A stretch of 63,411 nucleotides of DNA, counting the filler, from Folioceros fuciformis (Eukaryota): NCBI GenBank assembly GCA_049999805.1. It is 7 parts of 7 records of this genome, joined end to end, with 100 filler letters (N's around TTAATTAATTAA, not from the genome) between each part and the next. Parts side by side here need not be neighbours in the genome. Positions count along the whole stretch, not along the records: positions 38,414 to 49,902 come from JBNGIO010006410.1; positions 50,003 to 55,157 come from JBNGIO010006411.1; positions 55,258 to 59,762 come from JBNGIO010006412.1; positions 59,863 to 63,411 come from JBNGIO010006422.1; 3 more parts are not named here. The stretch is one strand, 5' to 3'. Numbering within the stretch: position 1 is the first letter of the stretch; the number at the start of each line of letters is the position of its first letter. The translations under genes were made by a program, and so were the position numbers. A model generated the notes under the pieces. That model ran no database searches. It was not told the DNA's origin and saw only the letters and a list, made by a program, of their open reading frames with translations. Below, piece by piece: positions 38,414 to 63,411 of this stretch.

Positions 38414-38460
38414 TTACGTTAGTCGTCATGTTCGGACATGGTTATTGGGACCGTCCCGCA
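38414..38460. repeat. 47-bp exact direct repeat at both ends of scaffold 38414-49902 (second copy 49856-49902)
   Basis: ttacgttagtcgtcatgttcggacatggttattgggaccgtcccgca is present at both positions. Confidence 0.95.
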
Positions 38461-41510: not shown

Positions 41511-42915
41511 ACGAGCATGAAACACAGGATTGGTAGCCAACCTCATGCTACTCATGTTGTCACAGTAGATTGTGATATTGCTGTTCACTATATTTCCAAG
41601 ATCATGTAGCAACTTCTGCAACCAAGCTGCTTCATAGGCTGCCATTGCAGCTCCACGATACTCTGCTTCTGTGCTTGACAAAGCAACTATCGGTTGTTTC
41701 TTGCTTTGCCAACTGATCATACTACTTCCCAGACTGAATGCATATCCATTGGTTGATCTTCTATCATACGCACAACCAGCCCAATCAGCATCGGTATATC
41801 CTATCAGTTCAAGATGCTTCCTATGCTCATAGAGCAATCCAAACTCAGCAGTTCCTTTCACATATCTCATGATTCTTCTAACTGCATCCAAGTGCGGTTT
41901 CCTTGGGTTCTGCATTAATTGACTAATCAGCCCTACTGCATAACTTAAGTCGGGACGTGTGATAGTCAAGTAGATCAAACTTCCGACCATCTGTCGATAC
42001 ATGATCACATTTTCCAGCTCAGTTCCTACATCCATTTGCAGCTTGATGTTTTGCTCCAATGGTGTATCCATCGCTTTGCAATCTGCCATGCCATACTTCT
42101 GCAGCATATCCTTAGCATATTGTTTTTGCAATAGCTAGATTCCTTGAGGTGTAGACACAACCTCAATTCCTAAGAAGTATTTGAGTTCACCAAGATCCTT
42201 CACCTTGAACTCTTTGTGCAGATTTGCCTTGATATTTGCAATACCATCTGCATCATCTCCTGTGATGATTAGGTCGTCAACATAAACGACAAGACACACT
42301 TGTCCTACCTTGGTCTGTTTTACAAACAGACTGTGATCTGCATTTCCAATCACAAACCCTCGCTCCTTCAAATAGCTTGTGATACAAGCATTCCATGCTC
42401 TAGGTGCCTGTTTGAGGCCATACAATGCCTTCTTCAGTTTGCATACGTACGTTGGAAACTTAGGATGAACATAGCCTTCAGGCTGTTCCACGTACACTTC
42501 CTCCTGCAACTCACCATTCAAGAAAGCATTCTTGACATCCATTTGCCATCACTTCCATCCTTTAGCTGCTACTAATGCTATGACTATCCTTACAATTGTC
42601 ATCTTGGCTACAGGACTAAAGGTTTCCTCATAATCAAGACCATACTGTTGTGCATATCCCTTTGCAACCAACCTGGCCTTGTAACGCTCCAGCGTTCCAT
42701 CTGACTTGAACTTCAGCTTGCACACCCACTTAGAACCAATAGGAACCTTGTCATCAGGCAATTGAACCAAATCCCACGTTCCGTTCTCACCTAATGCTGA
42801 GTATTCTTCATCCATGGCTTGACACCACTTATCATTTGTTACTGCCTCAACAAACTTGGTTGGCTCCTTACAAGCTATGACCCTTGTCGTATATGCATAA
42901 TGTTGCGCATTCTAG
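41511..42915 (-). mobile_element. Copia element G: RT-RNaseH fragment with nonsense mutations
   Basis: [47 protein letters not shown] and NPVFHAR, truncated just after NPVFHAR. Confidence 0.93.
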
Positions 42916-42917
42916 CT

Positions 42918-45160
42918 TGTTGTGGGCAAGCGGGTATGGTATCCCTACCAGGCACCCGCTCACATGTATCGTGGCCACATCAATCCCACGATCGTTGTAG
43001 GTTTCCCCGAAATCGCTCCCCTCTAAGCCTGGTCAGCTACGTCTATCGCTCCCCTACACTAGTCAACTCTCCCAACCACGTACCTATCATGATATATGGC
43101 CACACGTCCCATCAGTAGGTAGGCACCATTGCTTCACTTGGAAGGGCCCCAGTACCTCCCCTACCGATTTCTACCTCCCTACACTCAATACCTTTTCCTC
43201 ACAAGGCTTCCTACGACACCTTCCTCTACCCACAATCTAGCTACTCGTCTCCCTACGCCCAGCAACCAACAAGTTTTCTTCCGAGCCTACTCTGCTCCCT
43301 CCAACTCTATTTATCGTTCGCCTATGACCTTCAACCTTTCCCGCGTACCTTCAACACGTCCAGTTAGTAGGAAGGCACCATTCCTTCACTTGGAAGGGCC
43401 CAGTACCTCCCCCTACCAACTTCCAACTACCTACAACCAACACCTTTCCCCAAAAGTCTCCTCACAACACCTTCTACACGATCCAACTCCGCGTTTCCCT
43501 ACTTTCAAGACTCCCAACCAGACATCACAAGAACCTTTGCCATTGGCAATAGAAAGGGCACTCGTAGCTCCCCCCCCCTACCAGGATGTCCACGCAGACT
43601 TACGAAAATTGGTTCTCTATTCGTCACGAAACACTTACAATCAAAGAACGGGGACCTCCTCGCTCAAGTTCTGCATTCTACTTATATAGGATGGCATACG
43701 GCTTCCTACCTACCAATAGCCGCAGCCAGCTTTAACTACGCACACCTACCAAGAGGCTAAGACCTACCAATAGTTGCTAAGGCAGTGCGCGCCGATGAAG
43801 ATTAGGACTGTCGGTGCCGCCATAGAAGATTCGTTGACCTCCTTTTTCAAAAAGGTATGGCTAGGATGGCTCCTGAAGGGAGGCAGAGTCTGAAGGCTGA
43901 GCCACTGGGCCCCCCTCCATTATTGAGATTCGTCTTCTTTTGGATCCACGAGCTTCCACCGTACCTTCCTCTGTATGGATCTCTTGGGCTATCCCTTCAC
44001 CACCACCTACAAGTTTGGTAGGGGAGGGTTCCCCTTGTTCCTCAACTTGAGGCTCCTTCCCTACGTAGGGTGGGAATGTTCCCTCCGTACGTAGGGTCCC
44101 TACCATTCCTTCCCCTCCTCTCGTAGGTGGGTTCCCTACCCCTCCTCTCGTAGGTGGGNNNNNNNNNNCTACCCCTCCTCTCGTAGGTGGGTTCCCTACC
44201 CCTCCTCTCGTAGGTAGGTTCCTTAGGGGAGTAGGTACCCCTTATTGCGTGCTCTTCCTAGCCCATAGCAGCTCCTCAGGTTCCCATTGCGAGCTCTCCA
44301 GGTCCATACTGTTGTCCTCTTGAAAGTCTGTTGGTAGGGGCACTGTCTCCAGGGCCTCACGATCGTCATCATGTGGCCCAAGATACCTTCGCCTTGCCAA
44401 TGCTGCCAGTTCCTTGTGATGAACGAGTAGACGTTGGTGTAGGTGGAGGTTGTGATTCTGTTGAGCTAGATCTATGGTATCCATGTCAACAACCCAATCC
44501 CCACCCTCGCATTTACTCTTGTAGATATCCCGTTCAACCTCCATCGCCCCTACCTTCAACTGTAGGTCAAGGTTTTCTTGATGAGTTGCATGAAGCTTGG
44601 TCATGCACCCCATCAAGTAGGCGTAGTCACCACGAAACCTACGAGCTCGAACCACCAGCATCCTGTGAATCCTTGTCTGGTGCTCAGCTTCTTGTTGTGC
44701 TTTCTTCTGCCGAAGGTCTTCTAATTGGATGGTCAATTGTTCCCTCTCCACTCGCTCTCCTTGCCCTGCTTCAAGGCGTTGCTGGAGTTCTTGGTTCGCT
44801 TTAGCATTCTATGCCTCCAACTCATCTAGCTTGCCTTGTAAATCCTTTGCAAGGTAGACTTGTTCTCGTAGCTGTTCCTCCACCACCTTCCTAGTTTCCT
44901 CAAACTGGGTGAGGTCCCTTCGACATGCAATGATCTCATGGGATAAACCTTGTTGGGAAGTCTGCAACGTGGTCACCTGCTGGGTCAACTTCTCCAGTCC
45001 TTGCCTTTGCTCACCATCCTTGAGGAGATACTGTTCTCGCTCCTTTTCCAATTCCTGCACTTTGGATTCTAGTCGTGCCTGGTTTGCATCCTGACTTATG
45101 TCCTCCTGTAGTAGGGCTTCAATCATTGCACAAGCTTGTCCCCAATTGATGGGAGAGACC
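42918..45160 (-). mobile_element. Probable LTR-retrotransposon terminal region with decayed coiled-coil accessory ORF (about 45160 to 43861)
   Basis: Starts TGTTG where element G is interrupted. Contains an about 250-bp internal duplication (43121/43373). ORF pieces 44809-45237 and 44242-44751 are in one frame, split by a single TAG. No core TE domain is visible, so the class is inferred. Confidence 0.5.
44112..44220. repeat. 27-bp tandem repeat (encodes GNPPTRGGV on the minus strand), spans a 10-N gap
   Basis: cccctcctctcgtaggtgggttcccta in about 4 visible copies. Confidence 0.85.
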
Positions 45161-45555
45161 CATGCAATTCGTTTATCGACGACTACAGCAGGAGAAGGTC
45201 TATGCAGCGACGCCACCAAGACCCAGAATCCTTGCACCTTGAGTCAGCCACCAGAGATAGTGAGGAGTCTCTTGCCGTCGCTGTACAGCACCTAAGACAA
45301 AGGCTTGACAATATCAACAACACTGCACTTTGCCGTACCCAGCTCATCCTCACTACACTTGATAGCCTTACAGATCGGATAACCCGGTTTGAGGATCACC
45401 TGCAGCAAATAGACGTCAAGCTATTTGTTTTAATGAAACCACAGCTGCAGGAGAGGAATAGGCTTACCCGAACGATTCTCTCAAATTACAGACGAGCAAA
45501 GTTAGCTGTGTGCCAATCTAGGCCAGTGGAGTCTACCAATGCGGGTAGCTGCTGA
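45136..45555 (+). CDS. Copia B accessory ORF0 (coiled coil), 5'-truncated
   Basis: Aligns without gaps over 55 aa to ORF 58557-59213 of element D (LQQIDVKLFVLMKPQL vs LYHLDYKIHVLVKPEL). Confidence 0.65.
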   Translation: MSPIDGRDPCNSFIDDYSRRRSMQRRHQDPESLHLESATRDSEESLAVAVQHLRQRLDNINNTALCRTQLILTTLDSLTDRITRFEDHLQQIDVKLFVLMKPQLQERNRLTRTILSNYRRAKLAVCQSRPVESTNAGSC

Positions 45556-48500
45556 TTCATGAGTGGACAAGGGACATACTCCACTCTAGAGTGGCTGAGG
45601 AACTAAGCCCAAGAAGTCGGGCTTATCGATTTTGATGACTATGAGGAACAAGTGACAGATGGTGACTCTAGACGAGCATCTGTAAACACAAATCTGGAAC
45701 ACGTAGATTATTCCTAGTTCTGGAAAGCCAACAAAATGGATGAGGATGATAAAGCACGAGATAACATGATTAATGCACTACAGTCATTGACCAGCGGTGG
45801 ATTCAAGGAAAAGGACCGACTGGTCACAGGTGCTGAGTACGATATCTAGGTCATGAGGATGCAAGGCGCATTAGAGGAGAAAAATCTGTGAGATATCGTG
45901 ACTGGTGATGTACCAAAACCTGCAGAGGGGTCAGCAGACTTACCTGTTTGGAAGCTGGCTGACATAAGAGCAAGGAACCTGATCAGGTCAGGTCTTGCCC
46001 CAGAGATGATGCGTCAGGCATCTGATGGACCAAGTGACTCAGCGCAGGACATGTGGAACCACCTTGCTATGATGTTTGCCTCCCATGACATGGCAGCGTC
46101 TATGTCTGCTTCTGTGAAATACCATAGCCTGCGAATGACAGAAGGGGAGACAGTTGAACATTACATTGCAAGATTTAGAATTGCCCGTGCAAGACTAAGC
46201 TCAACAAGAACAAAGATTACAGACTACGAAGCAGCCTGTAGACTGTTGAGTTCCTTACCACCAAGTTACGGCCCTTTCGTCACTGGTCAACAGGCCATGG
46301 CGAAGGTGGAGGCCAGAATTGCCAAGGTCTTGAAACTTGATGCAGAGCCGCTAACATTCAACGGAGTGGTAAGTGCGATGCTGCAGGAAGAAGCCACACG
46401 GCTGTCTTCACGCTCTGCAAAACAGCAATCACAGGGTCAGCAAGCCCTTTTTGCAGGAAGGGGAAAAACATTCAAGAGAGGCCGAGGTGGCTGGAGTGCT
46501 AATCGTGGTGGTAGGACTGCTCCCATTGAACCTGGTCAGAGTTCAGGCAGCCAGAAAAGGAGTGGCAACTGCAACTGGTGTGGTATACCAGGTCACTGGG
46601 CACGGGATTGTCGTANNNNNNNNNNATAGGATACACTAATGGCATCAAAGCCTATAAGCTGTATGACCCTGTTACAAGGGTTGTGAGTCATGCCAGGAGT
46701 GTCGTGTTTGACGAACGGAGTGTGATGCAAGCCTCTCGTTCAGTAGTACCTCAAACTGTAACTGCTGACGGACTGGTGTATGACGATACAGAAGCTGAGG
46801 AAGAAGACACCCCATATCCTGCATACAGTCATGGTGGAGGTGAAGATGCTGTAGTCTCGCATTTTGACCAGACTGCTGAGCAAGCTGAGGACACTGCTGA
46901 AATAAATGCAGAAAATGGTGTCCTCTCATCTGAGGATGAAGGTGGTGAAGAGGCTGTACCTGAGCAGACTGACATGGAAATGCTGGATCAGGAATCTCCA
47001 GATGAGCATAGGTCCATACAAGATGCCCCACCACATCGTTATAGTCTGAGAGAGCGAAATAGGCCCTGGAAGGAGCCTCCGCTGGAGATGGAGGACTGGC
47101 GTCCAAGTAAGTCTAAGTCAAAAGCAAGAACTGCAAGGAGTGAACCACTTACCTTTGTGGACACTTCGGTGGGGGCACAGGTTGCAGAGGAGTTGTCATC
47201 TGGCGCTGCAGAAATGTTAGGAGATGCACAAGTCTCGAGTGCATATGTCCAAGCTATGGTGGCAGCCAGCGTGGATCTTTTGGAGCCTGTCACACTCACA
47301 CAGGCCTTTACCAGGTCAGAAGCAAAGCAGTGAAAAAAGGCAGTGGATGACGAATACGCATCCATAATAAAAAATGGTACATGGTCACTTGTGGAGCTGC
47401 CGAAGGATAGGAAACCCATTTCCTGCAAATGGGTCTTCAAACTTAAAGAGAAGGCGGATGGCAGTATCAAGCGCTACAAAGCACGGCTCGTAGCCCGTGG
47501 CTTCTCCCAAGTACCAGGGGTAGATTTTACCGAGACATTTGCTCCAGTTGTCAAATTCACAACGTTGAGAATGGTCCTTGCACCAGCAGCCCACCTAGAT
47601 TTGGATCTCAAGCAAATGGACGTCAAGACCACCTTCCTGCATGGCGAGCTGCAAGAAGAGATCTACATGCAACAGCCGGAGGGTTATGTGAAACATGGCA
47701 AGGATCACTTAGTGTGCAAACTGAACAAAACCTTGTATGGACTCAAGCAGAGTCCAAGAGCATGGAACCAACGCATTGACGCGTACCTGAAGAAGCTAGG
47801 CTTCAAGCAGGGGATGGCTGACCATGGACTGTACATGCTGAGCGAAGATGATAGCTTTCTGATCTTACTGCTGTACGTAGACGATCTTGTCTTGGCAGCC
47901 ACCAAGGGAAAGAGCAGCCTGATGAGCAAAGTAAAGGCTCTCCTGAAGCGTGAGTTCGAAATGACCGAGCTGGGAGAGCTCACATGGTGTCTTGGCATAG
48001 AGATCTCGAGGGACAGAGCAGCCAGGAAGCTATCAATTTGTCAGAAGAAATATATTAAAGAAGGACTAAAAAGGTTCAACCTGGCTGAGGCAAACGGGTG
48101 TGCAACACCCCTGGCAACTAGCCTGAAGCTGACAAGGGTACATGAACCCTTACCATCTGAGGAAATTGTAGAAATGTCGAAGACTCCATATAGGCATGCT
48201 GTGGGCACGCTTATATATCTGGCAAATGTAACGAGACCTGATATTGCATATGCTGTCAGCCTTGAGTCGCAATTTCTTGAGAACCCAAGTCTTGAGCACT
48301 GGAGCCAGGTTAAACGCACGTTCAGATATTTAAAGAACACACCTACTGAAGGAATAGTCTATGCAGGCACAGAAAGAGAGAAACTTACCCTCGAGGGCTT
48401 TTGTGACTCAGATTGGGCTTCGGACCTGAACAACAGAAAGTCACTGTTAGCATTTGTGCTAATGTTAGCAGGAGGACCAATTTTCTGGTCAAGCAAGAAA

Positions 48501-49614
48501 CAGGCAATGGTCTCCACCTCAAGTACTGAGGCCGAGTACAAAGCATTGACAGTTGCAGCAAAGGAAATTATTTGGATGAGAAGGAACTTATCTGATGTTG
48601 GGACAGCTCAGGAAGATGCAACAGTGGTGTACTGCGATAACCAAGGCACAATTGCGCTCACCAAGAACCCGGTATTCCACTCAAAAACGAAACACATAGA
48701 GATCCATCACCACTTTATAAGAGAAGTAGTGGCAGATGGACAGATTGTGGTGACCTACATCTCAACAGCTGAGAACCCAGCCGACCTGCTGACTAAGGCC
48801 TTGTCCAAAGAGCTGCATATCAAACATGCAAGAAGACTAGGCCTGACTGCCTGTGATTTCTGAACACACAAGAAGGCTGCAAGCTGCTGGACATCAGTCA
48901 CTCAGCGGAGCTTCAGCAGAATAAAAGTTGCGGCTTACTCCCGGACATGACTCAGTATCGATCCCAATTCGTAGCAAGTAGTATCCAGTCTTCTTGCAGA
49001 TGAAGGACGGCAGTGCCCAATTGGTGCCCTTGCAGACCAGAACGCATCCGTGTGCAGTGCCTGTAGGCAAGAGGCATCGTTGAGTCAAGCTTAACAGCTG
49101 TGAAGTCGAGAAAGAGAGGGTGGCCTCAGCCTTGATTGTCTCTGAGAGCAACGCAATAGTGGCCGAGTGTGGCGGCGGGCAGTCCTGTTGGAGAGCAGCA
49201 CTTCGGGCGATTTTGAGCTCGGAGGTAAGCAGATCAATTCTCACGAGAACGTAGGCGAGGACGAAGATCAGCCATTCCAGCAGCCGCCGGAGGAAGGACA
49301 GAAGTCAGATTAGGGCTAAGCTCAAGTGGGGGTGTTGGGATGGTGTTCGCTTATCCCTTAAATAGGACATAAAATAAGGGTTAGATATATATTTATTTAT
49401 TATTTATTTTAGGGCTCCGATGACGGTTAATCGTTAGTAACTGTCGTGTCATGTGAACTACATGTGAACGCCGTTTCACAACTCACTTCTTCACTTTTGC
49501 TTTCTCGCGTGCATATGCTTCTAGTGCGCTTGTGCGCCTACTTGCTGTTCATAAACGACATGTTCTTCTCATTCACCAAACCACAAGGGACACACATCCA
49601 TTGCCCTCACAACA
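45160..49614 (+). mobile_element. Copia element B: 5'-truncated ORF0, gag (with stops), pol to 48863, 3' spacer, PPT 49324-49332, 3' LTR 49333-49614
   Basis: FKEKDRL..YDI*VMRM gag start, CNWCGIPGHWARDC, RT LYVDD, RNaseH FCDSDWA/STEAEY/YCDN/ADLLTK, AAGTGGGGG PPT, and LTR termini TGTTGGGA...TCACAACA. Confidence 0.93.
48894..49304 (-). CDS. Copia B antisense accessory ORF, small protein with N-terminal hydrophobic helix (no in-frame ATG; CTG at 49301)
   Basis: The open frame extends 20 codons upstream of the tracked GTG, reading LSFLRRLLEWLIFVLAYVLVRIDLL..., and fills the pol-PPT spacer. Confidence 0.45.
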   Translation of the reverse strand, partial: LLSFLRRLLEWLIFVLAYVLVRIDLLTSELKIARSAALQQDCPPPHSATIALLSETIKAEATLSFSTSQLLSLTQRCLLPTGTAHGCVLVCKGTNWALPSFICKKTGYYLLRIGIDTESCPGVSRNFYSAEAPLSD

Positions 49615-50008
49615 GCGTGCTCCATGTATGGCTTCGAAGACGATCACCGGCTTGGTGCCCCCCTTGCCCACGTGGAGGAGGGGTGACCTTTTAGGGTTTC
49701 CATTGGGCGATCACACTTGCTAATTTCTAGTATTTCTGTAGCTCATGTTTCTACCACGAATGTTTCCGAACACTAATTTGAAGCAAGCAAAGCCAGGTAC
49801 CACGTGATGAATCAATTAGGCGAACAAACAGCAGAGATTACTTGCCACTGCTAAATTACGTTAGTCGTCATGTTCGGACATGGTTATTGGGACCGTCCCG
49901 CANNNNNNNNNNNNNNNNNNNNNNNNNNNNNNNNNNNNNNNNNNNNTTAATTAATTAANNNNNNNNNNNNNNNNNNNNNNNNNNNNNNNNNNNNNNNNNN
50001 NNTGTGTG

Positions 50009-50467
50009 CTACAGGCGCAACTGCTTCAAGCCTGCCATCTCCGCCGTCACCTCAGGGCACCTCCAAAAGGGAGCGTACCTGAAGACAAGGTTACCTTCAT
50101 CATCGCACCCAGCAGCATCTAAAATCATTGCCAGACCAGGACATGGCGACAGCTTGCGGAAGCTCTCCTCAGACGCAGGAGACAACCCCTTGAGCTGCCG
50201 CAACTCAGCATGCTACAATCTCAACTTTTGGCGCAGCAGTTCCTCCCTGCTTAGCTTGCTCAACCTGCATGACTTCTGGGGCACTGAACTCTTCTCGGAA
50301 TATTGTCTCTGCTCCCAGGAGGCAACGCAGATTAGCAGCACAAGCAGGAGCAAGAGGGCAAAGTTGCCGTCCAAGTGGGAAACTCCTTCAACACTCAGCA
50401 TAGTTGCGCTCAGTTCTGCAGACAGAGCGTATGCGGAAGCCGAAGACTGCCGGAGTTTACGGCGCAT
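50009..50467 (-). pseudogene. Copia C-family antisense accessory ORF with TM helix, one internal TAG at 50213-50215
   Basis: ORFs 50213-50479 and 50009-50203 are in one frame. MLSVEGVSHLDGNFALLLLLVLLICVASWEQRQ... lies immediately 5' of the PPT. Confidence 0.5.
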
Positions 50468-51292
50468 GCGAGAGTTCACAACGGCGGGAATGCAGACTAA
50501 GTGGGGGTGGCGTAAAACGGTGCCCTAGTCTAGCCTGCTTCCCACGTTAAGTAGAGTTTAGGTTATGGCATATGCGCTTAGATACAAACGGGCACATACC
50601 GTGCCCTAATGAAACGCTACCCGTCAACCGTTGTACAGCTTCACGGGACACGGCCTTAAAAGGCCTCACACACATGCATATCGTATTATTAATCTATGCT
50701 GATTTCCTCCCTACGCTAAGTCCTTTGATCCTACGCTATGGTATCAGAGCAGGCCTATGGATTCCGCCAAGTCTCCTACTAGCGTCTGTGAGATCTGCAA
50801 GTCAGAGTGTTGTATCAGATACTTGTCTCATGAACAATTTCGAGCGGCCATAGCAGCACTCAGAGTTGCACTCACCCGGTTTGGAAACATGGCGGAAGCT
50901 TTCTTGGCGGAGGCCGTCAACCACTATTATTCATAGTGCTTGCGTATCTCCTGTCGAGTAGCACCTGATGGATCCGCGTACACTGGTGGGTCGTTTGCAA
51001 TTTCTTGCACAGTTTACTCGTCCTGACCTTGCCCCTCTTCTACACAGGTTAGATAAGCACAGTCAGTCTTACTCACTACCCACTCAGTCTGCACATCAAT
51101 CATAGGCGCTTAGGACGCAGTCTTTGGCAGGAAAGAAGCTAGCATAGGAGCACCAGGTTATGTACACGCATAGCCCAGTGTCTTTCCTCACACTTGGTTA
51201 CGGGTGCACATATTCTGGTGCCCCTGCTCACACAAAAGGTCAGTCTTCAATCTTGCATAAGAATGTCAATTACTACACCTCTGTTCTAAACA

Positions 51293-51907
51293 ATGCTTCG
51301 CAATGGTCGCACAAAGCGCATCTTCAACCCACAAAGACCACTAGCTTCTCCCTTTAGGAGTAGCGTAGACCAACAGTCCCTCTTTTCCAGCCTTGCCCAG
51401 CAGGACACTTCTGGCTGCACTTACCAAGCTGTGGATTCTTGCAACACCTGTGGAAGAAGTGCGCACCGGCGCCCATCTGCGAGCGCATATGAGGCCGCGA
51501 CTGGTCTGGCAGAATCGGTGCTGAGGATTGTCCGCGACCTGGTTGCCCAGGAGCGCCACCACACGCATGCGATCTTGTGTGACTTCCGCCGTATGCGTGA
51601 AGTTCAACAAGAGTACCTCAGGAACCAGATTGATGATATCAACTGCTATTGCAAGCATTTGTCTAAGGACCTGAACTTGCTCTTTACGCGGGTTGCGCAT
51701 TTGGAAAGCGCTGCAAAACAACCAAACTCAAATTTTAGAACTGCTGAGACACAAGAGCCTACACCGCAGGACGACGTTATCTCTGAAGTTGCTGCATTTC
51801 TAACTGACATGTCACTTGAGGCAAAATCAAGGAAGATGGTGTTCGAGTATGAAGGCACCTTGGGATTCAAGCCTAGCAGGGAGACCACCTCGCAGGATTC
51901 CTGCTAG
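51293..51907 (+). CDS. Copia C accessory ORF0 (204 aa, coiled coil), in frame with gag across one TAG
   Basis: ATG-initiated ORF between PBS and gag, with heptads LRNQIDDINCYCKHLSKDLNLLFTRVAHLE. Confidence 0.55.
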   Translation: MLRNGRTKRIFNPQRPLASPFRSSVDQQSLFSSLAQQDTSGCTYQAVDSCNTCGRSAHRRPSASAYEAATGLAESVLRIVRDLVAQERHHTHAILCDFRRMREVQQEYLRNQIDDINCYCKHLSKDLNLLFTRVAHLESAAKQPNSNFRTAETQEPTPQDDVISEVAAFLTDMSLEAKSRKMVFEYEGTLGFKPSRETTSQDSC

Positions 51908-54900: not shown

Positions 54901-55257
54901 GGACAGGGGTCAAGAGAGTGTTGCGCTACCTGAAAGGCACACAGTATCTTGGAATCAGATATAAGTCACAAGGCAAGTTCCCTCTTCTTATATGCTATTC
55001 TGATTCCGACTGGGCTAGTGACGAGGACTCCAGACAATCGATCACTGCCAACTGTACAATTCTTTTTGGAGGTGCAATCAACTGGACATCAAAGAAACAA
55101 ACAGTGGTAGCACTCTCCAGTACTGAAGCAGAGTATACAGCCGCAACTTCTGCTGCANNNNNNNNNNNNNNNNNNNNNNNNNNNNNNNNNNNNNNNNNNN
55201 NTTAATTAATTAANNNNNNNNNNNNNNNNNNNNNNNNNNNNNNNNNNNNNNNNNNNN

Positions 55258-58200
55258 CCTGGAGGCTGCTGCATATATATCTCTGTGTCTAATTTCCCAT
55301 GTAGGAATGCTGTTTTAATTTCAAACATATCTAACTCATAGTCTTTGTGGGCTGCAACAGCACAGAGGATACGAAAAGTTGCCATCTTCACAACTGGAGC
55401 GAAGGTTTCCAGGTAATCTAGTCCTGGTACTTGTGAAAATCCTCGGGCTACGAGTCTAGCTTTATACCTGTCAAAGGTACCATCAGCTTTCACTTTGAGT
55501 TTGAAAACCCATTTACATGAGACCATTTTACGGCCTGGAGGTAACTTGGCTAGCTCCCAAGTTCCATTTTTAATCAAAGAGTCATATTCTGACTGTATGG
55601 CCTTTTTCCATTCAGCAGCATCAGGTCGACTAAGTGCCTCCTCATATGACTGTGGCTCTATAGGATCCAGCAATACAGAGGTGACATGTGCTGTCCGAAA
55701 ATCATGTGACTGATAAAAATCTGGAGGATGTCTTTCACGCTGTGGGTAGCGTCGTTCAGGTTGAGCAGCAGGGAGTGCTGGCTGCAGAGGTGCCGAGTTG
55801 TCATGAGCTACCTGGTCAGCATCACCAGCTTCAACTTCAGCTACTGCGTCCTCCACATCTGAGTCCACATCAAGAGGTAAAGGATCGAGAGGATGTGGCT
55901 GCTGTATTGGATCAACAGCATCCCCAAAAACTAGTACAACGCGTGCCATGTCAGGTTCAAAATCAGGTGCTGGTGGATCCTCTTGTTCCCCACCTGCAGG
56001 AGCAACATCCTCAGGAAGATCCTCAAAGTATGATACATCCTGTTCAAGATGTTCCCAACTGTCATCCTCGAGAGCATAATTGTCTGAAGCTCCCACTGGC
56101 CAGAAACGATTTTCATCAAAGGTAACGCTCCTGGAGTAGATGACATGATTGGCTGGCACATCATATAGCTTATATGCCTTGATGCCTTCAGTGTAACCTA
56201 ACATCAGCAATTTCTGGGCTTTGTTAAACAGCTTCTTGCGCTTCTCCCTGGGGACGAAGGCATACGCAACACAACCAAAAGTCCTCAAATGCAGGATCTT
56301 GGGCTTGTGTCCATAGAAGGCTTCATAGGGAGTCATCCCTTCAACAGCACTAGTAGGCAACCTGTTCCTTAGGTAGACAGAGGTTGTAAGGGCTTCTGCC
56401 CAGTAGGACAGGGGGAGGTGAGCATGATTCAGCAAGGAAGATGTCATCTCCTGCAGAGTAAAATTCATATGCTCAGCCACCCCGTTCTGTTGAGGTGTGT
56501 AAACAACTGTAAGCTGCCTGGCAATTCCTTCATCTGTACAGAAGGTCTGAAAGTCATGTGAGGTAAATTCCCCACCGTTATCTGAACGCAGGGTTTTCAG
56601 CTGCTTCCCTGTCCAGCGTTCTGCAAACTTCAAGTAAGCTTTGAAATGTGAAAAGCATTCACTCTTGGCCTTGAGGATATAGGCACTAACAAAACGGGTT
56701 TTGTCGTCTGTAAAGGTAAGGAAGTATCTCCCACCACCGAGAGAAGGCTTTGACAAGGGGCCACATAAGTCTGTGTGCACCAACTCCAAGACTTCAGATG
56801 CCCTATGAGGAGCTTTATTTCTGAAAGCTGCTTGATGGCGCTTAGCAAGAACACAAGGTTCACAAAGAGGTAAAGGCACTAATTTGCCTATAGGGCCATC
56901 TGCATAGAGATCACTTACGGCTATCTTCTGTAACTTGCTGCTGTGTGCGTGACCTAATCTAGCATGCCACAACTTAGATTTGGCTATCTGTTGTGTAGAG
57001 GCTTGGGAGTCCTCATGTGTCAGATGGGACTGAACTGCACCTCTGGAGCTGTGAAGACGAAACAGGTCATGTTCTGAAGACCCATAAGCTAAAACCTTGC
57101 TAGGATTAAAAGCATCTATCACCTTACACTCTGTATGTGTGAAAAGTATGTGACTGTTATTGTCTATGTTCAGTCGCCTAACGGAGATGAGATTTCGTGT
57201 CATCTCAGGTACATAATACACGTCTAAGAGTGACAAGATAACTCCAGATGGCACAGGCAGCTGTACTGTTCCTATGCCTGGAGAGACAAGTGATCTATTA
57301 TCACCAAGATAGACGAATTGGTCCTTTACTGACCTGTAAGTCTGAAATGCGTTTCTATCAAAACACATGTGAGCAGTGGCACCTGTGTCTAAGTACCACT
57401 CTGTAAATTGTTTAGCACTTGTTTTTGCTGACAGACATGTGGGTGCAGGGACAGAGTTTAGATACTGCCCTGTCTCAACCATAAGGGCTGATGGCGATGG
57501 CTGCTTCTTGACCACAATGTTGGTCTCAGCGTTTCCCTCCTTGCGAGGTAAGCCAGCTTGCTTTTTTCTGCATTCTCGTTCCCAGTGTCCAGGGATTTTG
57601 CACCAATTGCACACCCCTGGTTTCTTACTCTTCTTCTGCGCAGACTGTGTTGAGTGGCCTCCTTGCGAGCCACCACCTCGGGATGAACTAGATCCACCGC
57701 CTCTGGAGTATGGCCTTGCGCCACCTCGCCCACGGTTGGATGTAAACAGCGCTTGCTGCTTGCCAGCACGCCTGCCTAGTCCTCCTCTGGTCGCCTCCTC
57801 TTCTAGGAGGGACCCAACAAGCTCTGCGAATGTTAATTCTGGTACCTTAAGACCAGCTGACTTAGCTAGCTTGGCTACCTGCAACTGGGATGCATGAATG
57901 GATGTCACAAAGTGTGACCAGGATGGGGGTAAGGATAGCAACAAATAGAGTGTTAGCATCTCGTCCTTAATTGTCTCGCCAGTAGCATTTTCTAGCTTTG
58001 AGACTAATGTTCTGAATGTCATGACATGTTTTTCTACAGATTCTCCTTCACGCATCTTGCATTGCTGAAGGTTGCTAAGGGCTGACAACTGATTTGCGGA
58101 GTTCTTTCCAGCATACAATTCTTCAAGACGACCCCAGATCTCTTCTGCTGTCTTACAGCCAGCAGTTTGTCGCATCATATCTGCTGTGAGGCCGCTCCTG

Positions 58201-59762
58201 ATGAGGTACATGGCAAACTCATTTCTGAGTTGTCGTGCCTCCCTTTGCTGTGAAGTTTCTCCTTCTTCTGGCAAGTCTGACCCTGTTGTGGTGTTCCAGA
58301 GTTTTCTGCTCTGGAGTGCGCCTTTCATGCGCATTACCCATATGTCATACTGACGACCGTCGAATCTGTCTTTTTCTTTAAAGCTTTCTCCTCCTCCAAC
58401 AACTGATGAGGAAGCTGTGTCTCCCATTGCGGGAGGTATACAGAGGTGATGAGGCTACTGGCTACTACCAAGGACAGATCTACAGGAGGGCAGCTAGCAT
58501 GTTGACAGGTCTGATAACCTCATGTAAGCTAGCTGATTGTTGTGCCTCCTTTTCTGCTATCTGTTCCTTCCTAATTGTGAACCTACTGTATGTGTAGGTT
58601 GCACATGATGGACAGGAGTTAGGATCATCAAAACGCTGATTTCCACTAGTGCACTTAATTGATCTTGTTGCAAAAGTGCGAGATTCAGGGTTTTGAGCAA
58701 CTCAGGTTTCACCAAAACATGGATTTTGTAATCCAAGTGGTAAAGTTGCTCCCTCAGATCCTGTAAGTCCACACTCACGCCTGCAATGCTTTTGTTCAGA
58801 TTTACGTAGCGCCTGTCAACAAACAGGGCATGTAATTCTATTCTGGAAATGATCTGTGAAACTGTGGCTGGTGGTGCAGGCTGAGTTGTTAGGAAACCAT
58901 TAGGGTTTCCATGCACGTCCAGGGCGGGTCTGAGGCGCGGCTCCAGATGATTGGCTTCTGCTGCCTGCTCACGGGGATCAACAAACAGTTGCTGGTAGTC
59001 AGGATAGAGGGTAGAAACCAAGAAATTGTAAGCCTCCCGCAGTCGAGTGCAGTGGGCAGGCCGGTCCTGATTTCTCAACGTCCACTCTTGTGTCTGCCGG
59101 TGCAGGCGTTCAGCAACATTTCTGTCATTTAAGGGTCCCCTGAGAGATCGACTGCGCAGGTTGATGCGCTCAGCAGGTCGAGGCTGCCACATCTGGCCCT
59201 CGTTCTGTGCCATCTGTGATGGCTTGTAATCTGGTTGTAAGAATGCTAATTTTATGCATTCTGTTCATTATTATTTCTCTATTTACATAGTAATTTGCAC
59301 TATCTAGCAGGTGTTCTAGTGTAGTTCTATCAGAATTGTTATTGAAAAACAATCTGAATAGAATTGCACTAGAATACAGCTACTAGATCTGCAAATTAAC
59401 AAATTGTAAATAAGCAAATAAAGAAACAACCAGAAAACTTAAGTTCTTGATTTTGTTTTTGGTTTCATTTCAAGAAAACATTCTTAAACATAAAACAGCC
59501 AAAAACGCATGTTTGTGCGCATCCTAAGGTGCACAATTTTATGTGCATTCTCTAGAATGCAACCTGCATCATCACAGCTCTGATACCATGACAATTTTAT
59601 AAGGATAATGCAGATTTTATTAAAAACATAAATTGATGATCGAGAAAAGAAGTTAAAATAAAATTGGGGTGTGTCTTTTCGCTGAGAGTCGTAACCCTAA
59701 TGAAGAGGTATTTAACTTAAACCATGTATAGACCTAAGATATATATGTTATCTAAATAGCTA
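55258..59762 (-). mobile_element. Copia element D: partial 5' LTR (59589-59762), PBS (59577-59588), ORF0 and uninterrupted gag-PR-IN-RT from ATG 58427
   Basis: TGGTATCAGAGC on the minus strand. Protein motifs FKEKDRFDGRQYDIWVMRM, CNWCKIPGHWEREC, WYLDTGATAHM, VHTDLCGP, RSDNGGEF and YKARLVARGF. Confidence 0.96.
58557..59213 (-). CDS. Copia D accessory ORF0 (218 aa, C-terminal coiled coil)
   Basis: ATG-initiated, between PBS and gag, and homologous by eye to ORF 45136-45555. Confidence 0.7.
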   Translation of the reverse strand: MAQNEGQMWQPRPAERINLRSRSLRGPLNDRNVAERLHRQTQEWTLRNQDRPAHCTRLREAYNFLVSTLYPDYQQLFVDPREQAAEANHLEPRLRPALDVHGNPNGFLTTQPAPPATVSQIISRIELHALFVDRRYVNLNKSIAGVSVDLQDLREQLYHLDYKIHVLVKPELLKTLNLALLQQDQLSALVEISVLMILTPVHHVQPTHTVGSQLGRNR

Positions 59763-60031
59763 NNNNNNNNNNNNNNNNNNNNNNNNNNNNNNNNNNNNNN
59801 NNNNNNTTAATTAATTAANNNNNNNNNNNNNNNNNNNNNNNNNNNNNNNNNNNNNNNNNNNNTGTTAAACATTAGAGAATCTCACACTACTCACCAAGTT
59901 GTGCATAAAGATTGTTCAATTAATATCAACAAAAGTGTTTATATACAAAAACCCTCCAAGAGTCACGTCTTTTGGGAATAACTAAACTGCTCTTAATAAG
60001 TCTGACAGCTGCTATCGTTTAAATGACGGGT

Positions 60032-60040
60032 AAACCCTAA
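60032..60040 (+). promoter_or_regulatory. Telo-box AAACCCTAA in LTR E, just upstream of the antisense ORF
   Basis: Exact telo-box about 60 bp upstream of ATG 60103; function is inferred. Confidence 0.4.
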
Positions 60041-60102
60041 CGGGGTTTCTCCAAACACGCCCCCGTAAACGGAGCAGGCTGTCGGACTGCGGATCATGAG
60101 CA

Positions 60103-60402
60103 ATGACAGGATCATTGTCGCAATACCTCGGGCTCTGTGCTTTCGTGATAGCTGTGTATCTGCTGTACCAATGGCGCGGCGAGGAAAGCAGAAAACAGAG
60201 AAGAAAACAGCGAAGCAACAATGAACAAGCAGACCACCACCGCCAGGCCTGGACGGCATTCGCGACAGAACAGCGCTGGCAAATCATGAACTGGGAATTT
60301 CAGCTACTCCTCTCTGTCGCGATGAGAAAGGTGGAGGCGATGGCGGCCAGCAGAGAAATAACCCTGGAAGAGCAGCTGAAGCAAGCTGCCGCCTGCAGCT
60401 GA
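60103..60402 (+). CDS. Copia E antisense accessory ORF: 99-aa single-pass membrane protein with polybasic juxtamembrane stretch
   Basis: MTGSLSQYLGLCAFVIAVYLLYQW-RGEESRKQRRKQR...; intact ATG to TGA, fills the pol-PPT spacer and stops 14 bp from the pol stop. Confidence 0.6.
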   Translation: MTGSLSQYLGLCAFVIAVYLLYQWRGEESRKQRRKQRSNNEQADHHRQAWTAFATEQRWQIMNWEFQLLLSVAMRKVEAMAASREITLEEQLKQAAACS

Positions 60403-63400
60403 AATAACCATCTTGACTATGGTTGAGGACAGGCCTTGATACCCAGAGCTTCCATATGTAGTAAGTGCTTGTGCGCGGGTAGATACTTAGTGAGCAAATC
60501 AGCAGTGTTCAGGTCGGTTGTAACATGCTGGATGCGCACTTCGCGTTGCTCCACAGAGTGTCTAATAAAGTGGTGATGCACTTCGATGTGCTTTGTACGA
60601 GCATGAAAACGCGGGTTGGCTGTCATAGCAATCGTAGACATGTTGTCGCAATAGATAGGGGTTGGCTGCGATTGAGGAAAGCCAAGACCACCCAGAAAAC
60701 AGCGTTCCCATATGGCTTCCTTAGAGGCTTCAGTCAAAGCCTTGTACTCTGCCTCGGTTGAGGAGAGAGCCACAGAGACTTGTTTCTTCGAACTCCAGTG
60801 GACAGCTGCACCAGAGAGGACAAAGCAGTATGCGGATATGCTTCTTCGAGCATCGGGATCGGTGGCCCAGTCGGCATCAGCCCATCCAGAAACAAGGAAA
60901 TCATCTGTTTTTCGCCCCCGGAAGCATAGCCCATAATGCATTGTTCCCTTTAAATATCGCAGGATTCGTTTCACGGCACCCCAGTGTTCCTTGCCCGGAT
61001 TGTCGAGGAACTGTGAAACGGAACTGACCGCATACTGTATGTCGGGGCGTGTCCAGCAACTTATGTAGTTCAGACACCCAACAGCATGCCGGTAGGGAAC
61101 ACTGGCCATAGCTGCTGTCTCAGAAGGAGTCTGGGGACACTGTGCAGATGTCAACTTCGAACCGGCCACTCCAGGAGTAGAGACTGGCTTGGCAGAATCA
61201 AGTTGAAAACGGCGAAGGGTTTCCAAGATGTACTTAGCCTGGTGGAGCACAATAGTGTGGGAAGAGAAATCGCGAACCAGCTGGACGCCAAGCACAAAGG
61301 TCAGAGGCCCGATATCCTTCATGTCGAATTTTTGATGAAGCATTTGCTTGACCCAAGCTAACAGGGATGGATCATTTGAGGCTAGAAGTGCATCATCGAC
61401 ATAAAGGGCAAGCACCACCATGCGGCCATCCTTGGAGTAGAGGTAAACATTAGCATCACCAGGGTTCTGCAAGAAGCCGATGGACTTGAGGTAAGCGTCT
61501 ATAGTCTTGTACCACTCGCGGGCAGACTGTTTAAGGCCGTAAATTGTCTTCTTTAGTCTGCAAACCCAGTCAGGATGCTCGGGATCTACAAACCCTTCAG
61601 GCTGCTGCATGTATATATCTTCCACAAGCTCTCCGTAGAGGAAGGCTGTGCAGACGTCCATCTGCTGGAGATCCCATGCGTTGGCAGCAGCAAGGGCAAT
61701 AATCATGCGAATGGATTGGGTCTTGACAACTGGGCTGAAAGTCTCGGTGAAATCCACGCCAGGAATTTGAGTGAAACCCCGTGCTACTAAACGGGATTTG
61801 TATCTGGCTATCTCACCATCTGCATTCAATTTGTGCTTAAAGACCCACTTGGAACTAACAACTTTGCGTCCTGCTGGCAGGGGGCAGAGTTCCCAAGTGT
61901 CATTCTTCATGAGCGAGTCATACTCGTCTTTGATTGAGGGTATCCAGAAATGCTTATCTTCACCTGTGATGGCTTCTTGATATGTACGGGGCTCAGGCTT
62001 GACAGAAGCCTGAGGAATGGACACACCAGCCCTAGGTTGACGAAAATCTATCGACTGATAGGGTGGTTCAATCCATTGAGATGGAGGCAGACGGGTCCTT
62101 CGTGGATACCTAGGCTCAGGGTCAGGTGCAGCAGGAAGAATGGCCATGGGATCACCACGGGAAGGTGCCTCCGAGCTGTTGGCCTCACCAAAATCCGACT
62201 CTGCAAGTGATTCAGCGTCATCAACCACAACGTCATGCAACTCATCTTCAGGTTCCAAATAAGGGTCCTCGTCTTGAACTGCAACACCATCCGCAGGAGG
62301 AGCAACACCCTGAACATCAGGGTTTGGAGGTATGTTTCCAAACGCTGGTGCAACTTCAGAACCTGTAGGGTTTGGAACATCTGTGATAACTTCAGACGCT
62401 GCAGCTGGTGCAGGTTGGTGATCTTCTGTAGGCGGAACTAGCAGCTGATCATAAACTGCAGGTACATCATCTTGTGGAAAAACCGTGCAGTCTTCCAGAT
62501 CAGTCATGTCAACATGAGTAACAGTTTCCTGGTTATGTGGCAGAGAGTCGAAATAAGGCTTGGCAGGAGAGACCAGTTCTTTGAACGTCACACTGCGAGC
62601 AAAGATGGCTGCCTTGGTAAGTGTGTCGTATAGCTTATATGCCTTTGCCTCTTCCCCATAGCCAACAAAAATCGTAGGCTTAGCCCTATCATCCAGCTTC
62701 TTGCGCTTCTCTTCAGGAACATACACATAGGCAGGAGATCCGAAAACTCGAAGATGGAGAAGACTTGGTTTTCTACGCCAGATAATTTCGAAGGGAGTCT
62801 TGCCTTCAACTGCACTTGTTAGAATACGGTTCAAGATGTAAGTTGCCGTCACCACTGCCTCCGCCCAAAAAGCCTTGCTTAAACCAGACCATTCTAACAT
62901 GCTCCTTGTCATCCCTAACAGAGTTTGATTCCTTCTCTCAGCGACGCCGTTCTGCTGCTGAGTGTAAGGAACTATGAGCTGCCGCACAATTCCGTTGTCG
63001 AGAAGAAACTGGGTAAAGTGAGCATGGACAAACTCTGTCCCGTTATCTGTACGGAGACATTTCAAGAGCAAGCCGGTTTGCCGTTGAATCATGGCCAACC
63101 ACTCCTGGAAGACACTAAATGTGTCGGACTTCAGCCTAAGTGGGTAAGTCCAGGAGTACCTACTATAATCATCTGTGAGTGTTAAGTAGTATCTTGCTCC
63201 CCCTAAACTGGGAATGTGGATTTTGCCAGAAATGTCTGCATGAACGAGATCAAGGACTTGAGATGCACGGTGGGCAATGGTTCTAGGAAAAGGGACTTCT
63301 TTCTGCTTGGCTATCACACAAGCATCACACAGGGGTAAGTCCTTAAAACACTTAGGCAGAGGCTCTCGGTAACATGTGAGGTTGGACATTTTTATCAGTT

Positions 63401-63411
63401 TGGCCCGATTA

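Follow-up and report, generated by a model that had tools for sequence, protein, structure and literature searches.

Three diverged Ty1/copia elements of Folioceros fuciformis carry an extra open reading frame (ORF0) ahead of gag. On balance, our analysis favors the view that these ORF0s encode, or once encoded, a helical protein, that antisense ORFs found near the 3' ends of two elements result from chance or decay, and that the two do not form a two-gene system. The window analyzed is a stretch of 63,411 nucleotides, filler included, from assembly GCA_049999805.1. A sequence-only reading of it had proposed a Copia lineage with a 5' coiled-coil ORF0 and a 3' antisense membrane-protein ORF. 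The 5' part stands as a positional and structural feature of three diverged Copia families; the 3' antisense gene does not.

Element fragments in the window

The range 45136-60417, previously read as one 15-kb system, is neither contiguous DNA nor a single locus. It consists of four unplaced and unlinked assembly pieces with artificial linkers between them (Table 1). Each piece contains one incomplete element (B, C, D and E), and Pfam identifies all elements as Ty1/copia (Retrotran_gag_2, rve, RVT_2). No whole element or LTR pair was found in any of the four pieces, and no tandem repeats in the range. One copy each of the B, C and D families was examined. These elements are far apart, with pairwise identities of 32.4-38.5% in gag and 47.7% between the RTs of B and C, and their common layout is therefore not due to recent copying. 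The CNWCxIxGHWxRxC knuckle reported for A, B and D occurs exactly three times in the six-frame translation. The gag-start motif reported for B, C and D is found in C and D; in B, a stop replaces its W codon.

Table 1. Positions of features, counted along the whole window
Feature	Position	Strand	Remarks
Linker N44-TTAATTAATTAA-N44	49903-50002	none	artificial; joins two assembly pieces
Further linkers, inside range	55158-55257; 59763-59862		N44-TTAATTAATTAA-N44
Same linker, outside range	at 30549, 35162, 38314
A knuckle	38156-38115	-	CNWCxIxGHWxRxC
F PBS	40861		1 mismatch; gag domain from ~41000
B ORF0	45202-45555	+	117 codons from ATG; 146 stop to stop from 45115; heptad stretch; ends ..GSC-stop
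B gag, copia-type	45736-46615	+	2 in-frame stops; CCHC knuckle 46570-46611
B gag-start motif	~45800		W codon = stop
B scaffold gap	46616-46625		N10
B pol remainder	46626-48863	+	integrase C-terminal SH3 part, then RT-RNase H
B antisense ORF	48894-49304	-	136 codons stop to stop; hydrophobic/heptad stretch, residues 2-36
B PPT-like AAGTGGGGG	49324-49332	+
B putative 3' LTR	49333-49902	+	TG..CA
C putative 5' LTR	50003-50738	+	contains 103-codon antisense ORF and 174-codon sense-open stretch
Antisense ORF near C	50524-50213		103 codons
C PBS	50739-50750	+	exact 12/12 match to tRNA-Met-type motif
C ORF0	51293-51907	+	204 codons; heptad stretch 109-143; ends ..DSC-TAG
C Ser/Pro-rich stretch	51908-52300	+	131 codons, open, in frame, ORF0 stop to gag ATG
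C gag, integrase C-terminal part, RT	52301-55157	+	RT cut by piece end
C gag-start motif	52340-52396
C gap in gag	52963-52972		N10
D gag-pol	55258-58427	-	1056 codons; cut in RT by piece end
D knuckle	57611-57570	-	CNWCxIxGHWxRxC
D gag-start motif	58382-58338
D ORF0	58557-59213	-	218 codons; heptad stretch 123-157
D PBS	59577-59588	-	exact 12/12
D partial 5' LTR	59589-59762		AT-rich
E putative short 3' LTR	59863-60057
E PPT-like run	60060-60066
E antisense ORF	60103-60402	+	99 codons from ATG
E pol (IN-RT-RH)	60417-63410	-	open to window end

The copies differ in preservation. B is a decayed, 5'-truncated copy with no 5' LTR or PBS and one internal in-frame stop in pol (47331-47333). Its putative 3' LTR follows the PPT-like run, and no second LTR was found. 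The 47 nt at the end of this putative LTR are identical to those that open the piece (38414-38460). C is also decayed, with an N10 gap in gag and one in-frame stop in pol. In D, an intact ORF0 adjoins an intact gag-pol.

ORF0 and its possible product

As had been noticed, B, C and D each contain an extra sense ORF ahead of gag (117, 204 and 218 aa, respectively). Its product, present or past, is most likely a fast-evolving α-helical protein with a heptad-repeat (coiled-coil-type) segment. A doubtful alternative, which still carries some weight, is a lack of function: the ORF0s would be stretches that happen to stay open in long, AUG-rich untranslated leaders, their helical, heptad appearance arising from composition or from RNA-level constraint. 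Length argues against it in D and B: among 2000 dinucleotide-preserving shuffles of each leader, the ORF0 length was reached by none for D and by 7 for B. However, the 29 shuffles that reached it for C are matched by a control, the sense-open stretch in the C LTR, which is equally ‘significant’ (22/2000). The three elements agree in the strand of ORF0, in its place and in its frame with respect to gag. That all three ORF0s share the frame of gag, for which chance is 1/27, also argues against non-functional stretches.

Heptad periodicity, as the coiled-coil character claimed for ORF0 would predict, is present in all three. With a home-made heptad score, calibrated by shuffles and other window ORFs only, 2, 1 and 3 of 500 shuffles reached the values of the B, C and D ORF0s, compared to 374 of 500 for the E antisense ORF used as a control. 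Five of the 74 window ORFs of 110-240 codons had scores reached by at most 3 of 300 shuffles, and three of these five are the ORF0s. Their heptad stretches occupy the same columns in a three-way alignment. An AlphaFold2 single-sequence model of the B ORF0 is a single helix of 99 residues (8-106), predicted with confidence (mean pLDDT 89.6). At the start of the D ORF0, GC steps up sharply to 0.50 from 0.28-0.31 in the LTR and leader (0.31 directly upstream). GC by codon position there (0.62/0.37/0.50) is coding-like, resembling RT controls (0.57/0.40/0.54). The heptad signal, the B helix and the GC pattern of D argue against non-functional stretches. In near-identical DNA contigs (runs X1/X2), the D ORF0 stays open, with two conservative residue changes and no stop.

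Other results are more easily accommodated by non-functional stretches. The model of the D ORF0 is poor and lacks a long helix (mean pLDDT 34.5), and its Atlas recognition is low (1230). Homologue searches were empty: there was no relative of the D ORF0 among 1,835,955,588 representative proteins, none of the C ORF0 in a word-based search, and none in two metagenome scans. In pairwise Smith-Waterman comparisons of the ORF0s, 20, 45 and 19 of 1000 shuffles scored at least as high, and the alignments are mutually inconsistent. In the three-way alignment, 8 of 300 shuffles reached the sum-of-pairs score, and identity is at chance (145/300). The ORF0 ATG is preceded by 11 AUGs in D and 6 in C.

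The shared frame also fits an N-terminal Gag extension, in which one long gag frame with a start far upstream has since been broken by stops as the copies decayed, or is read through into a longer Gag isoform. We regard this explanation as improbable. Glyco-Gag of murine leukaemia virus, an upstream in-frame Gag extension, provides an analogy. In C, one stop, a TAG, stands between ORF0 and 131 more open codons running into gag, and B and C are decayed with stops elsewhere too, as this explanation would predict. However, three stops separate ORF0 from gag in B, as they do in D. All three in D fall within the 44 codons that lead from the ORF0 stop to the start codon of gag, whereas none is found in the 1056 codons of gag-pol; this clustering is not a random-decay pattern. 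The B and C ORF0s both terminate in ..SC-stop after a similar 8-residue tail, suggesting a conserved terminus. In addition, the ORF0s gave no Pfam gag signal at E values up to 10.

If ORF0 encodes the helical protein that we favor, it would be translated from the full-length RNA, and the D ATG has a good context (A-3/G+4). The protein may self-associate through its heptad segment and act with Gag or RNA. As 16-23 upstream AUGs precede gag-pol, translation of ORF0 would imply that ribosomes get to gag-pol by shunting or reinitiation, or from an RNA that is spliced or shorter.

Antisense ORFs

The most likely origin of the 3' antisense ORFs is chance or decay in GC-rich 3' regions, not a shared gene. 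The sequence-only reading had placed an antisense ORF with an N-terminal hydrophobic helix between pol and the PPT in B and E, and a third adjoining C. The positions in B and E are as described; in E, the ORF has the pol stop (60417) on one side and the PPT-like run on the other. Of the antisense ORFs adjoining C, just the 103-codon one has a hydrophobic stretch, and taking it as the third example is a guess. Since it is upstream of the exact C PBS, it is located in the 5' LTR and not between pol and a PPT, and its hydrophobic stretch is mid-protein, at residue 51. In B and E, the stretch is near the start (KD19 2.06 at residue 8 and 1.70 at residue 3). Among the 139 window ORFs with 90-160 codons, 5 have such a stretch in the first 30 residues; those of B and E begin within the first 10.

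These hydrophobic starts would suit a single Copia lineage in which an oligomerizing 5' ORF0 acts together with a single-pass membrane protein encoded antisense at the 3' end. Particle targeting, cell-to-cell movement and anti-silencing, suggested as functions of such a pair, are conjectural. The two-ORF reading would also suit the presence of both ORFs on the B scaffold, the length of the B antisense ORF (longer than 1957 of 2000 shuffles, reached by 43), and a sub-threshold Pfam match of the E antisense ORF to DUF6766 (E 4.6e-5, 23.2 bits, cut-off 27). However, the B antisense ORF contains no Met anywhere, and the E one has a length at chance (156/2000 shuffles; 638/2000 counting either strand) and gave no homologues when searched. 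Similarity between the antisense ORFs is at chance (reached by 371, 795 and 257 of 1000 shuffles), and Atlas scores are at chance as well. The two ORFs in B flank the N10 gap, directly after gag, that replaces PR and most of IN in this decayed copy. Their co-occurrence was seen once, because the E 5' end and the C and D 3' ends lie outside the window. Such a two-ORF system is therefore very improbable.

Relation to known accessory ORFs

ORF0 is most likely a lineage-specific 5' extra ORF, of a kind already catalogued in LTR retrotransposons. Extra ORFs of plant LTR retrotransposons, Copia included, are on record, and ORF0 adds no more to these than a new 5' variant of small size. In the accessible parts of the REXdb survey (Neumann et al., 2019; PMC6317226), eORFs are reported in 582 Ty1/copia elements in 45 mutually dissimilar groups, and are classed by position and orientation as eORF-5'F, 5'R, 3'F and 3'R. 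Their proteins are highly divergent and mostly without known domains (PMC6317226). The cut-off given there is 250 codons, so ORFs of 117-218 codons would escape the survey.

The 5' extra ORFs of Ty3/gypsy chromoviruses (Tekay group 2, Retrosat-2 ORF0, RIRE3/8) are similarly sense, located between the 5' LTR/PBS and gag, and without a known domain. Unlike the ORF0s here, which belong to Ty1/copia, have 117-218 codons and share the frame of gag, they are found in Ty3/gypsy and are larger (Tekay ~400 aa). According to the accessible text, the sunflower Tekay 5' aORF protein has a few well-predicted α-helices with the rest disordered, and 500 of the 523 members of the family conserve the aORF (PMC11728184). 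Retrosat-2 is described, in the part of the source available, as carrying an ORF0 of unknown function (PMC3485330).

Grande, RIRE2 and Retand of the Ty3/gypsy Tat clade have an antisense aORF that lies 3' of pol and ahead of the 3' LTR. As far as the accessible text describes, it is conserved across copies and species (PMC7264820). In contrast, the B and E antisense ORFs are dissimilar, that of B has no start codon, that of E is of chance length, and their hosts are Copia. The sense 3' eORF of SIRE is the only Copia eORF termed characteristic in the available parts of the survey (PMC6317226). The SIRE/Sirevirus env-like ORF also gives a Copia lineage an accessory ORF, but it is sense and 3' of pol, where the longest sense-open stretches here are 56 codons in B and 77 in E.

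By description, ORF0 may be a functional analogue of the caulimovirus virion-associated protein (ORF III product), from a different virus family. This protein is small, has a coiled-coil segment and is encoded directly upstream of the Gag-like capsid gene. Caulimoviruses are plant reverse-transcribing elements, whose RNA has a long leader with many AUGs. In the window, B, C and D have unusually long leaders, measuring 1550 nt from PBS to gag ATG in C and 1149 nt in D, compared to ~130 nt from PBS to gag in element F, the element with a short leader that had been put forward as an internal control.

Assembly pieces and element anatomy

Six identical 100-nt linkers are found in the window, each consisting of 44 N, TTAATTAATTAA and 44 N. 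The 12-base core is a palindrome (its own reverse complement) and carries stop codons in all six frames. The linkers are artificial spacers that string together separate unplaced assembly pieces. From ~30.5 kb onward the window is a concatenation of such short pieces, so features that span linkers do not represent real linkage. The sequence-only reading had described a 15-kb system, in which Copia elements carry a 5’ coiled-coil frame and a 3’ antisense membrane-protein frame. As one locus, this system is an artefact of the concatenation.

Self-BLAST found no LTR pair anywhere in the window. Each element is truncated where its piece ends, which makes the missing LTR pair uninformative. The piece containing element B has an identical 47 bases at its two ends (38414-38460 and 49856-49902), which correspond to the end of the putative 3’ LTR of B. 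Sharing of 20 or more bases is not seen for any other pair of piece ends, and no primer binding site (PBS) directly follows 38460. The repeat has the appearance of an overlap of the assembly graph at a repeat edge, or of a further LTR from this family immediately upstream. B and C have their N10 gaps at structurally equivalent positions. Each gap falls after the gag knuckle region and before the C-terminal part of integrase, with the protease and integrase core missing. The B and C scaffolds may each combine 5’ and 3’ parts from different copies.

All large frames in the region (45136-60417) match Ty1/copia families in Pfam, namely Retrotran_gag_2, Pol_BBD, gag_pre-integrs, rve, SH3_retrovirus and RVT_2. 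The E-values for Retrotran_gag_2 are 9e-20 in B, 2e-32 in C and 2.2e-31 in D. The domain order is gag, Pol_BBD, gag_pre-integrs, rve, SH3, RVT_2 in D and rve, SH3, RVT_2 in E. The presence of RVT_2 and the position of integrase before reverse transcriptase (RT) identify the elements as Ty1/copia (Pseudoviridae). The six-frame translation contains the CCHC knuckle pattern attributed to A, B and D exactly three times, once in each of these elements; the equivalent region in C coincides with its N10 gap. The proposed shared gag-start motif is intact in C and D and is also found in B, where the tryptophan codon is a stop.

The tRNA-Met-type PBS motif, which we take to be the complement of the tRNA-Met 3’ end, is matched exactly (12/12) in C and D and with one mismatch in F, and is absent in B. 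Allowing up to two mismatches, it has 9 matches across the window against 5.67 expected. A half-tRNA PBS is reported for Bryco and Osser (PMC6317226). The exact full-length sites in C and D are a weak hint against these lineages.

The gag sequences are 38.5% identical between B and D, 32.7% between B and C and 32.4% between C and D, and the RTs of B and C are 47.7% identical. Residues 1-300 of D gag gave a single match at 23% identity in a word-based search of 5.8 billion proteins (5075 candidates), which neither placed D in a lineage nor revealed a relative with an extended N-terminus. A and E are 61% identical in integrase and 74-75% identical in nucleotides over two stretches of ~0.8-0.95 kb. 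Directly adjoining F, in inverted orientation, is a Copia RT-RNase H fragment (42911-41325, minus strand) with 41-42% identity to the B and C RTs; F and this fragment are a nested or rearranged pair. F had been offered as an internal control without the 5’ frame. As a frameshifted gag fragment in such a pair, it is a weak one.

Features of the Ty1/copia elements (A-F) and of the assembly pieces that contain them
Feature	Position	Strand	Remarks
Linkers	30549-30648, 35162-35261, 38314-38413, 49903-50002, 55158-55257, 59763-59862		last three inside the region
Unlinked pieces under the region	38414-49902, 50003-55157, 55258-59762, 59863-end		four pieces
A	38313-35262	-	E-like
F	~40997-41352	+	gag fragment, frameshifted, behind one-mismatch PBS at 40861
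Coiled-coil ORF beside B	44242-45126	-	293 codons, one in-frame stop, head-to-head with truncated 5’ end of B
B	~45136-49902	+	without 5’ LTR or PBS
B ORF0	45202-45555	+	
B gag ATG	45736	+	two in-frame stops within first 52 gag codons
B knuckle	46570-46611	+	N10 gap 46616-46625 replaces protease and most of integrase
B RT-RNase H	ends 48863	+	one internal stop in pol
B antisense ORF	49304-48894	-	136 codons, no Met
B PPT-like run	49324-49332		then putative 3’ LTR to 49902
C	50003-55157	+	putative 5’ LTR first, then exact PBS 50739-50750
C ORF0	51293-51907	+	ends at single TAG
C ORF0-gag interval	TAG to gag ATG 52301	+	131 open Ser/Pro-rich codons in the frame of ORF0
C 3’ end		+	RT cut by piece end; N10 gap 52963-52972
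D	59762-55258	-	partial AT-rich LTR; exact PBS 59588-59577
D ORF0	59213-58557	-	
D gag-pol	from 58427	-	1056 codons, no stop, up to piece end
E	window end to 59863	-	IN-RT-RH only; pol stop 60417
E PPT-like run	60066-60060	-	then short putative LTR
E antisense ORF	60103-60402	+	99 aa

The reading frame upstream of gag

The extra sense frame proposed to precede gag (ORF0) is present in B, C and D and is separate from gag in each. In C and D the PBS is followed by ORF0, one to three stops and the gag ATG, and the order in B is the same without a PBS. ORF0 is in the frame of gag in all three elements, an agreement expected by chance with a probability of 1/27. Given how strongly the elements have diverged, their common layout does not stem from recent copying. 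Each family is represented by one copy.

From stop to stop, ORF0 measures 146, 205 and 235 codons in B, C and D, respectively. These lengths were compared with the open sense stretches in 2000 dinucleotide-preserving shuffles of each leader, the stretch upstream of gag, and were reached by none of the shuffles in D, 7 in B and 29 in C. The putative 5’ LTR of C (50003-50738), analyzed as a control, contains a 174-codon sense-open stretch (22/2000 shuffles) and an antisense stretch of 103 codons (226/2000). Because shuffles match this control about as rarely as they match C ORF0, length alone is weak coding evidence for C. No tandem repeats were found in the region.

Composition in D is consistent with a coding frame. 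GC content is 0.28-0.31 across the LTR and leader and steps up to 0.50 where ORF0 begins, the values by codon position (0.62/0.37/0.50) resemble those of RT controls, and the start codon is flanked by A at -3 and G at +4. A codon-usage log-likelihood favored the open frame for every ORF tested, the antisense ones included, partly since the other frames contain stops, and is not discriminating. Contigs from two DNA sequencing runs (X1 and X2) cover 58305-59618 of D with four differing letters. Two of these are in ORF0, where both cause conservative residue changes and neither creates a stop. Each DNA run gave one near-identical contig over ORF0, and low-depth relatives differ between 58560 and 58762. 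A presumed RNA run (X4) matched D in five short pieces, less than 95% alike and confined to conserved parts of gag and RT, and is uninformative on expression. In a further run from the sample of X1 and X2 (X3), 327 C>T and 436 G>A differences were found over 55258-59762, against 61 others. The X3 library looks bisulfite-converted, so cytosine-methylation data for these elements may exist.

Heptad periodicity marks all three ORF0s, and a long helix is modeled for B. Heptad periodicity was measured by a home-made a/d score over 35 residues (five heptads) and calibrated against shuffles. The scores of B, C and D were reached by 2, 1 and 3 of 500 shuffles, respectively, compared to 374 of 500 for the E antisense ORF used as a control. 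Among 74 window ORFs of 110-240 codons (stop to stop), five had scores reached by at most 3 of 300 shuffles: the three ORF0s, the antisense ORF of B and, unrelated to these, a coiled-coil ORF on the minus strand beside B. AlphaFold2 run without an alignment modeled B ORF0 as one helix over residues 8-106 (mean pLDDT 89.6). The model of D ORF0 has a pLDDT of 34.5 and short helices only.

Homology among the three ORF0s is not established by sequence comparison. Their heptad stretches share columns in a three-way MAFFT alignment. Of 300 shuffles, 8 attained the sum-of-pairs score of this alignment, while its number of identical pairs is no better than chance (145/300). For the pairwise Smith-Waterman scores, 20, 45 and 19 of 1000 shuffles did as well, and the three pairwise alignments are mutually inconsistent. 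B and C end in a similar 8-residue tail with the same SC before the stop, a likeness noticed post hoc.

Searches for relatives were negative. None was found for D ORF0 among 1.84 billion representative proteins, none for C ORF0 among proteins of near length in the word-based search, and neither matched in two metagenome scans. An Atlas search with D ORF0 was blank, with a low ‘recognition’ value of 1230. B ORF0 had no match among PDB sequences (best E 0.045). A sub-threshold Pfam match of C ORF0 to BPS1 (21.7 bits, cut-off 23.5) was discounted, and B and D gave nothing to this family even at E up to 10.

The minus-strand ORF beside B is also strongly heptad-periodic (2/300 shuffles), with sub-threshold Pfam matches to ATG16 and the CENP-F zipper. 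We rejected it as an inverted ORF0 relative, as its scores against the three ORF0s were reached by 122, 43 and 545 of 1000 shuffles. Downstream of it on the same strand are proline/glycine-rich repeats (43100-44240) and an inverted Copia RT-RNase H fragment.

One possibility is that ORF0 once extended Gag at its N-terminus. The shared frame agrees with this, as does C, where a single TAG is followed by 131 codons open into gag. However, D has three in-frame stops within the 44 codons that run from the ORF0 stop up to the gag ATG, followed by a gag-pol frame free of stops over 1056 codons, and B also has three stops between ORF0 and gag. This pattern in D and B led us to read ORF0 as a separate cistron. 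Counting against ORF0, its ATG is preceded by 11 AUGs in D and 6 in C. The gag ATG is preceded by 23 and 16, respectively, which would place gag out of reach by plain scanning of the full-length RNA. Gag might instead be reached by reinitiation, by shunting or from a spliced or shorter RNA.

We lean toward ORF0 being a lineage-specific, fast-evolving 5’ helical extra ORF, present in three divergent Copia families with long AUG-rich leaders. A stronger reading, which we hold only tentatively and consider rather unlikely, is that a deep, poorly sampled Ty1/copia clade kept a small coiled-coil accessory gene between PBS and gag, in the frame of gag, while gag itself diverged to ~35% identity.

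The 3’ antisense frames

Antisense ORFs are indeed present between pol and the PPT-like run in B and E. They do not behave as a shared gene. The length of the B ORF was reached by 43 of 2000 shuffles, or 86 counting either strand, and that of the E ORF by 156, or 638 for either strand. Both 3’ regions have a GC content of 0.54, which favors long chance ORFs. For C, the only antisense ORF beside it with a hydrophobic stretch (50524-50213), presumably the one proposed, is located inside the putative 5’ LTR, upstream of the PBS, and its hydrophobic stretch is at residue 51. Pairwise similarity among the antisense ORFs is at chance, with scores reached by 371 (B versus E), 795 and 257 of 1000 shuffles. 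The E ORF had no relatives among longer proteins in the protein search, and its Atlas scores were at chance level. Its sole Pfam match, to DUF6766, is sub-threshold (23.2 bits, cut-off 27) and was discounted.

A point in their favor is that both the B and E antisense ORFs have a hydrophobic stretch within the first 10 residues. Of the 139 ORFs of 90-160 codons in the window, only 5 have such a stretch starting within the first 30 residues. The heptad signal of the B antisense ORF comes from the same stretch as the hydrophobic one and is not independent evidence. ORF0 and the antisense ORF do occur together on the B scaffold, as had been pointed out. They are on opposite sides of the N10 gap, which makes their linkage in one copy uncertain. 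Most likely, the antisense ORFs are frames that are open by chance or have decayed, and a real shared antisense gene is very doubtful.

The antisense half of the proposed system thus fails simple controls. The original observation is confirmed in part, and support for its interpretation is partial and limited to ORF0. The main lesson at present is one of caution, given the concatenation artefact and the failure of the antisense half.

Known extra frames and other contents of the window

The usual description of Copia elements is one of gag-pol units with a uniform structure (Neumann et al., 2019; PMC6317226). The same study classed extra ORFs as 5’ or 3’ and forward or reverse, and reported ORFs of at least 250 codons in 582 Ty1/copia elements, in 45 dissimilar groups. 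The characteristic Copia example there is the sense 3’ ORF of SIRE. The ORF0s of B, C and D match the eORF-5’F (5’ aORF) class in place, strand and separation from gag, but all are shorter than its cut-off of at least 250 codons. B and E lack a SIRE-type sense 3’ env-like ORF, their longest sense-open stretches between pol and the 3’ LTR being 56 and 77 codons, respectively.

Sense and antisense 3’ ORFs were reviewed by Vicient and Casacuberta (2020; PMC7264820), and the antisense examples in the sections covered are all from Ty3/gypsy. Unlike the antisense ORFs of Tat/Retand/Grande, which are conserved between copies or families and are hosted by the Ty3/gypsy Tat clade, those of B and E show no mutual similarity and are located in Ty1/copia elements. 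Conserved 5’ ORFs with few helices and long disorder are described in sunflower Tekay (Ty3/gypsy; PMC11728184), rice Retrosat-2 carries an ‘ORF0’ (PMC3485330), and a 2025 review notes extra ORFs in most LTR-retrotransposon lineages (PMC12786077). Our literature search, which covered the main text of PMC6317226, found no description in Copia of a small 5’ coiled-coil ORF or of a 5’ ORF0 combined with a 3’ antisense ORF; the per-lineage eORF lists that supplement this paper may include such cases.

If ORF0 is a conserved gene, one Copia clade would possess a helical protein dedicated to an accessory role and encoded 5’ of gag. A kept ORF0 would also be the first such conserved 5’ gene to be described in Copia. 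Its conservation would imply a non-scanning route to gag, with the long many-AUG leader needing shunting, reinitiation or splicing. It would also provide a simple handle on the regulation of Gag supply or on particle assembly in plant retrotransposons. Caulimoviruses encode a small coiled-coil protein just upstream of the capsid gene, and the glyco-Gag of murine leukaemia virus is an in-frame upstream extension. These functional parallels serve as leads only; as a kept coiled-coil gene, ORF0 would be a structural counterpart of the small proteins of such plant pararetroviruses.

Outside the elements, 1-30548 consists of host DNA that is rich in genes and has long frames without interruption. 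These frames include a protein kinase (8010-9563, minus strand), a 955-codon frame with a Vps51-like N-terminal domain (11656-14523, minus), a DEAH helicase of more than 1100 codons (16160-19516, plus) and a PPR protein with an E motif (20125-22419, plus). A 797-codon frame without a Pfam match (26120-28513, plus) is located just upstream of frames that match RVT_1 faintly (28897-30483). The piece containing F and B also carries a germin-like cupin gene (39201-39902, plus; Cupin_1 E 1.4e-32). At the end of the otherwise unannotated piece 30649-35161, a 57-nt unit is repeated three times (34854-35161), with copies 98% identical by self-BLAST.
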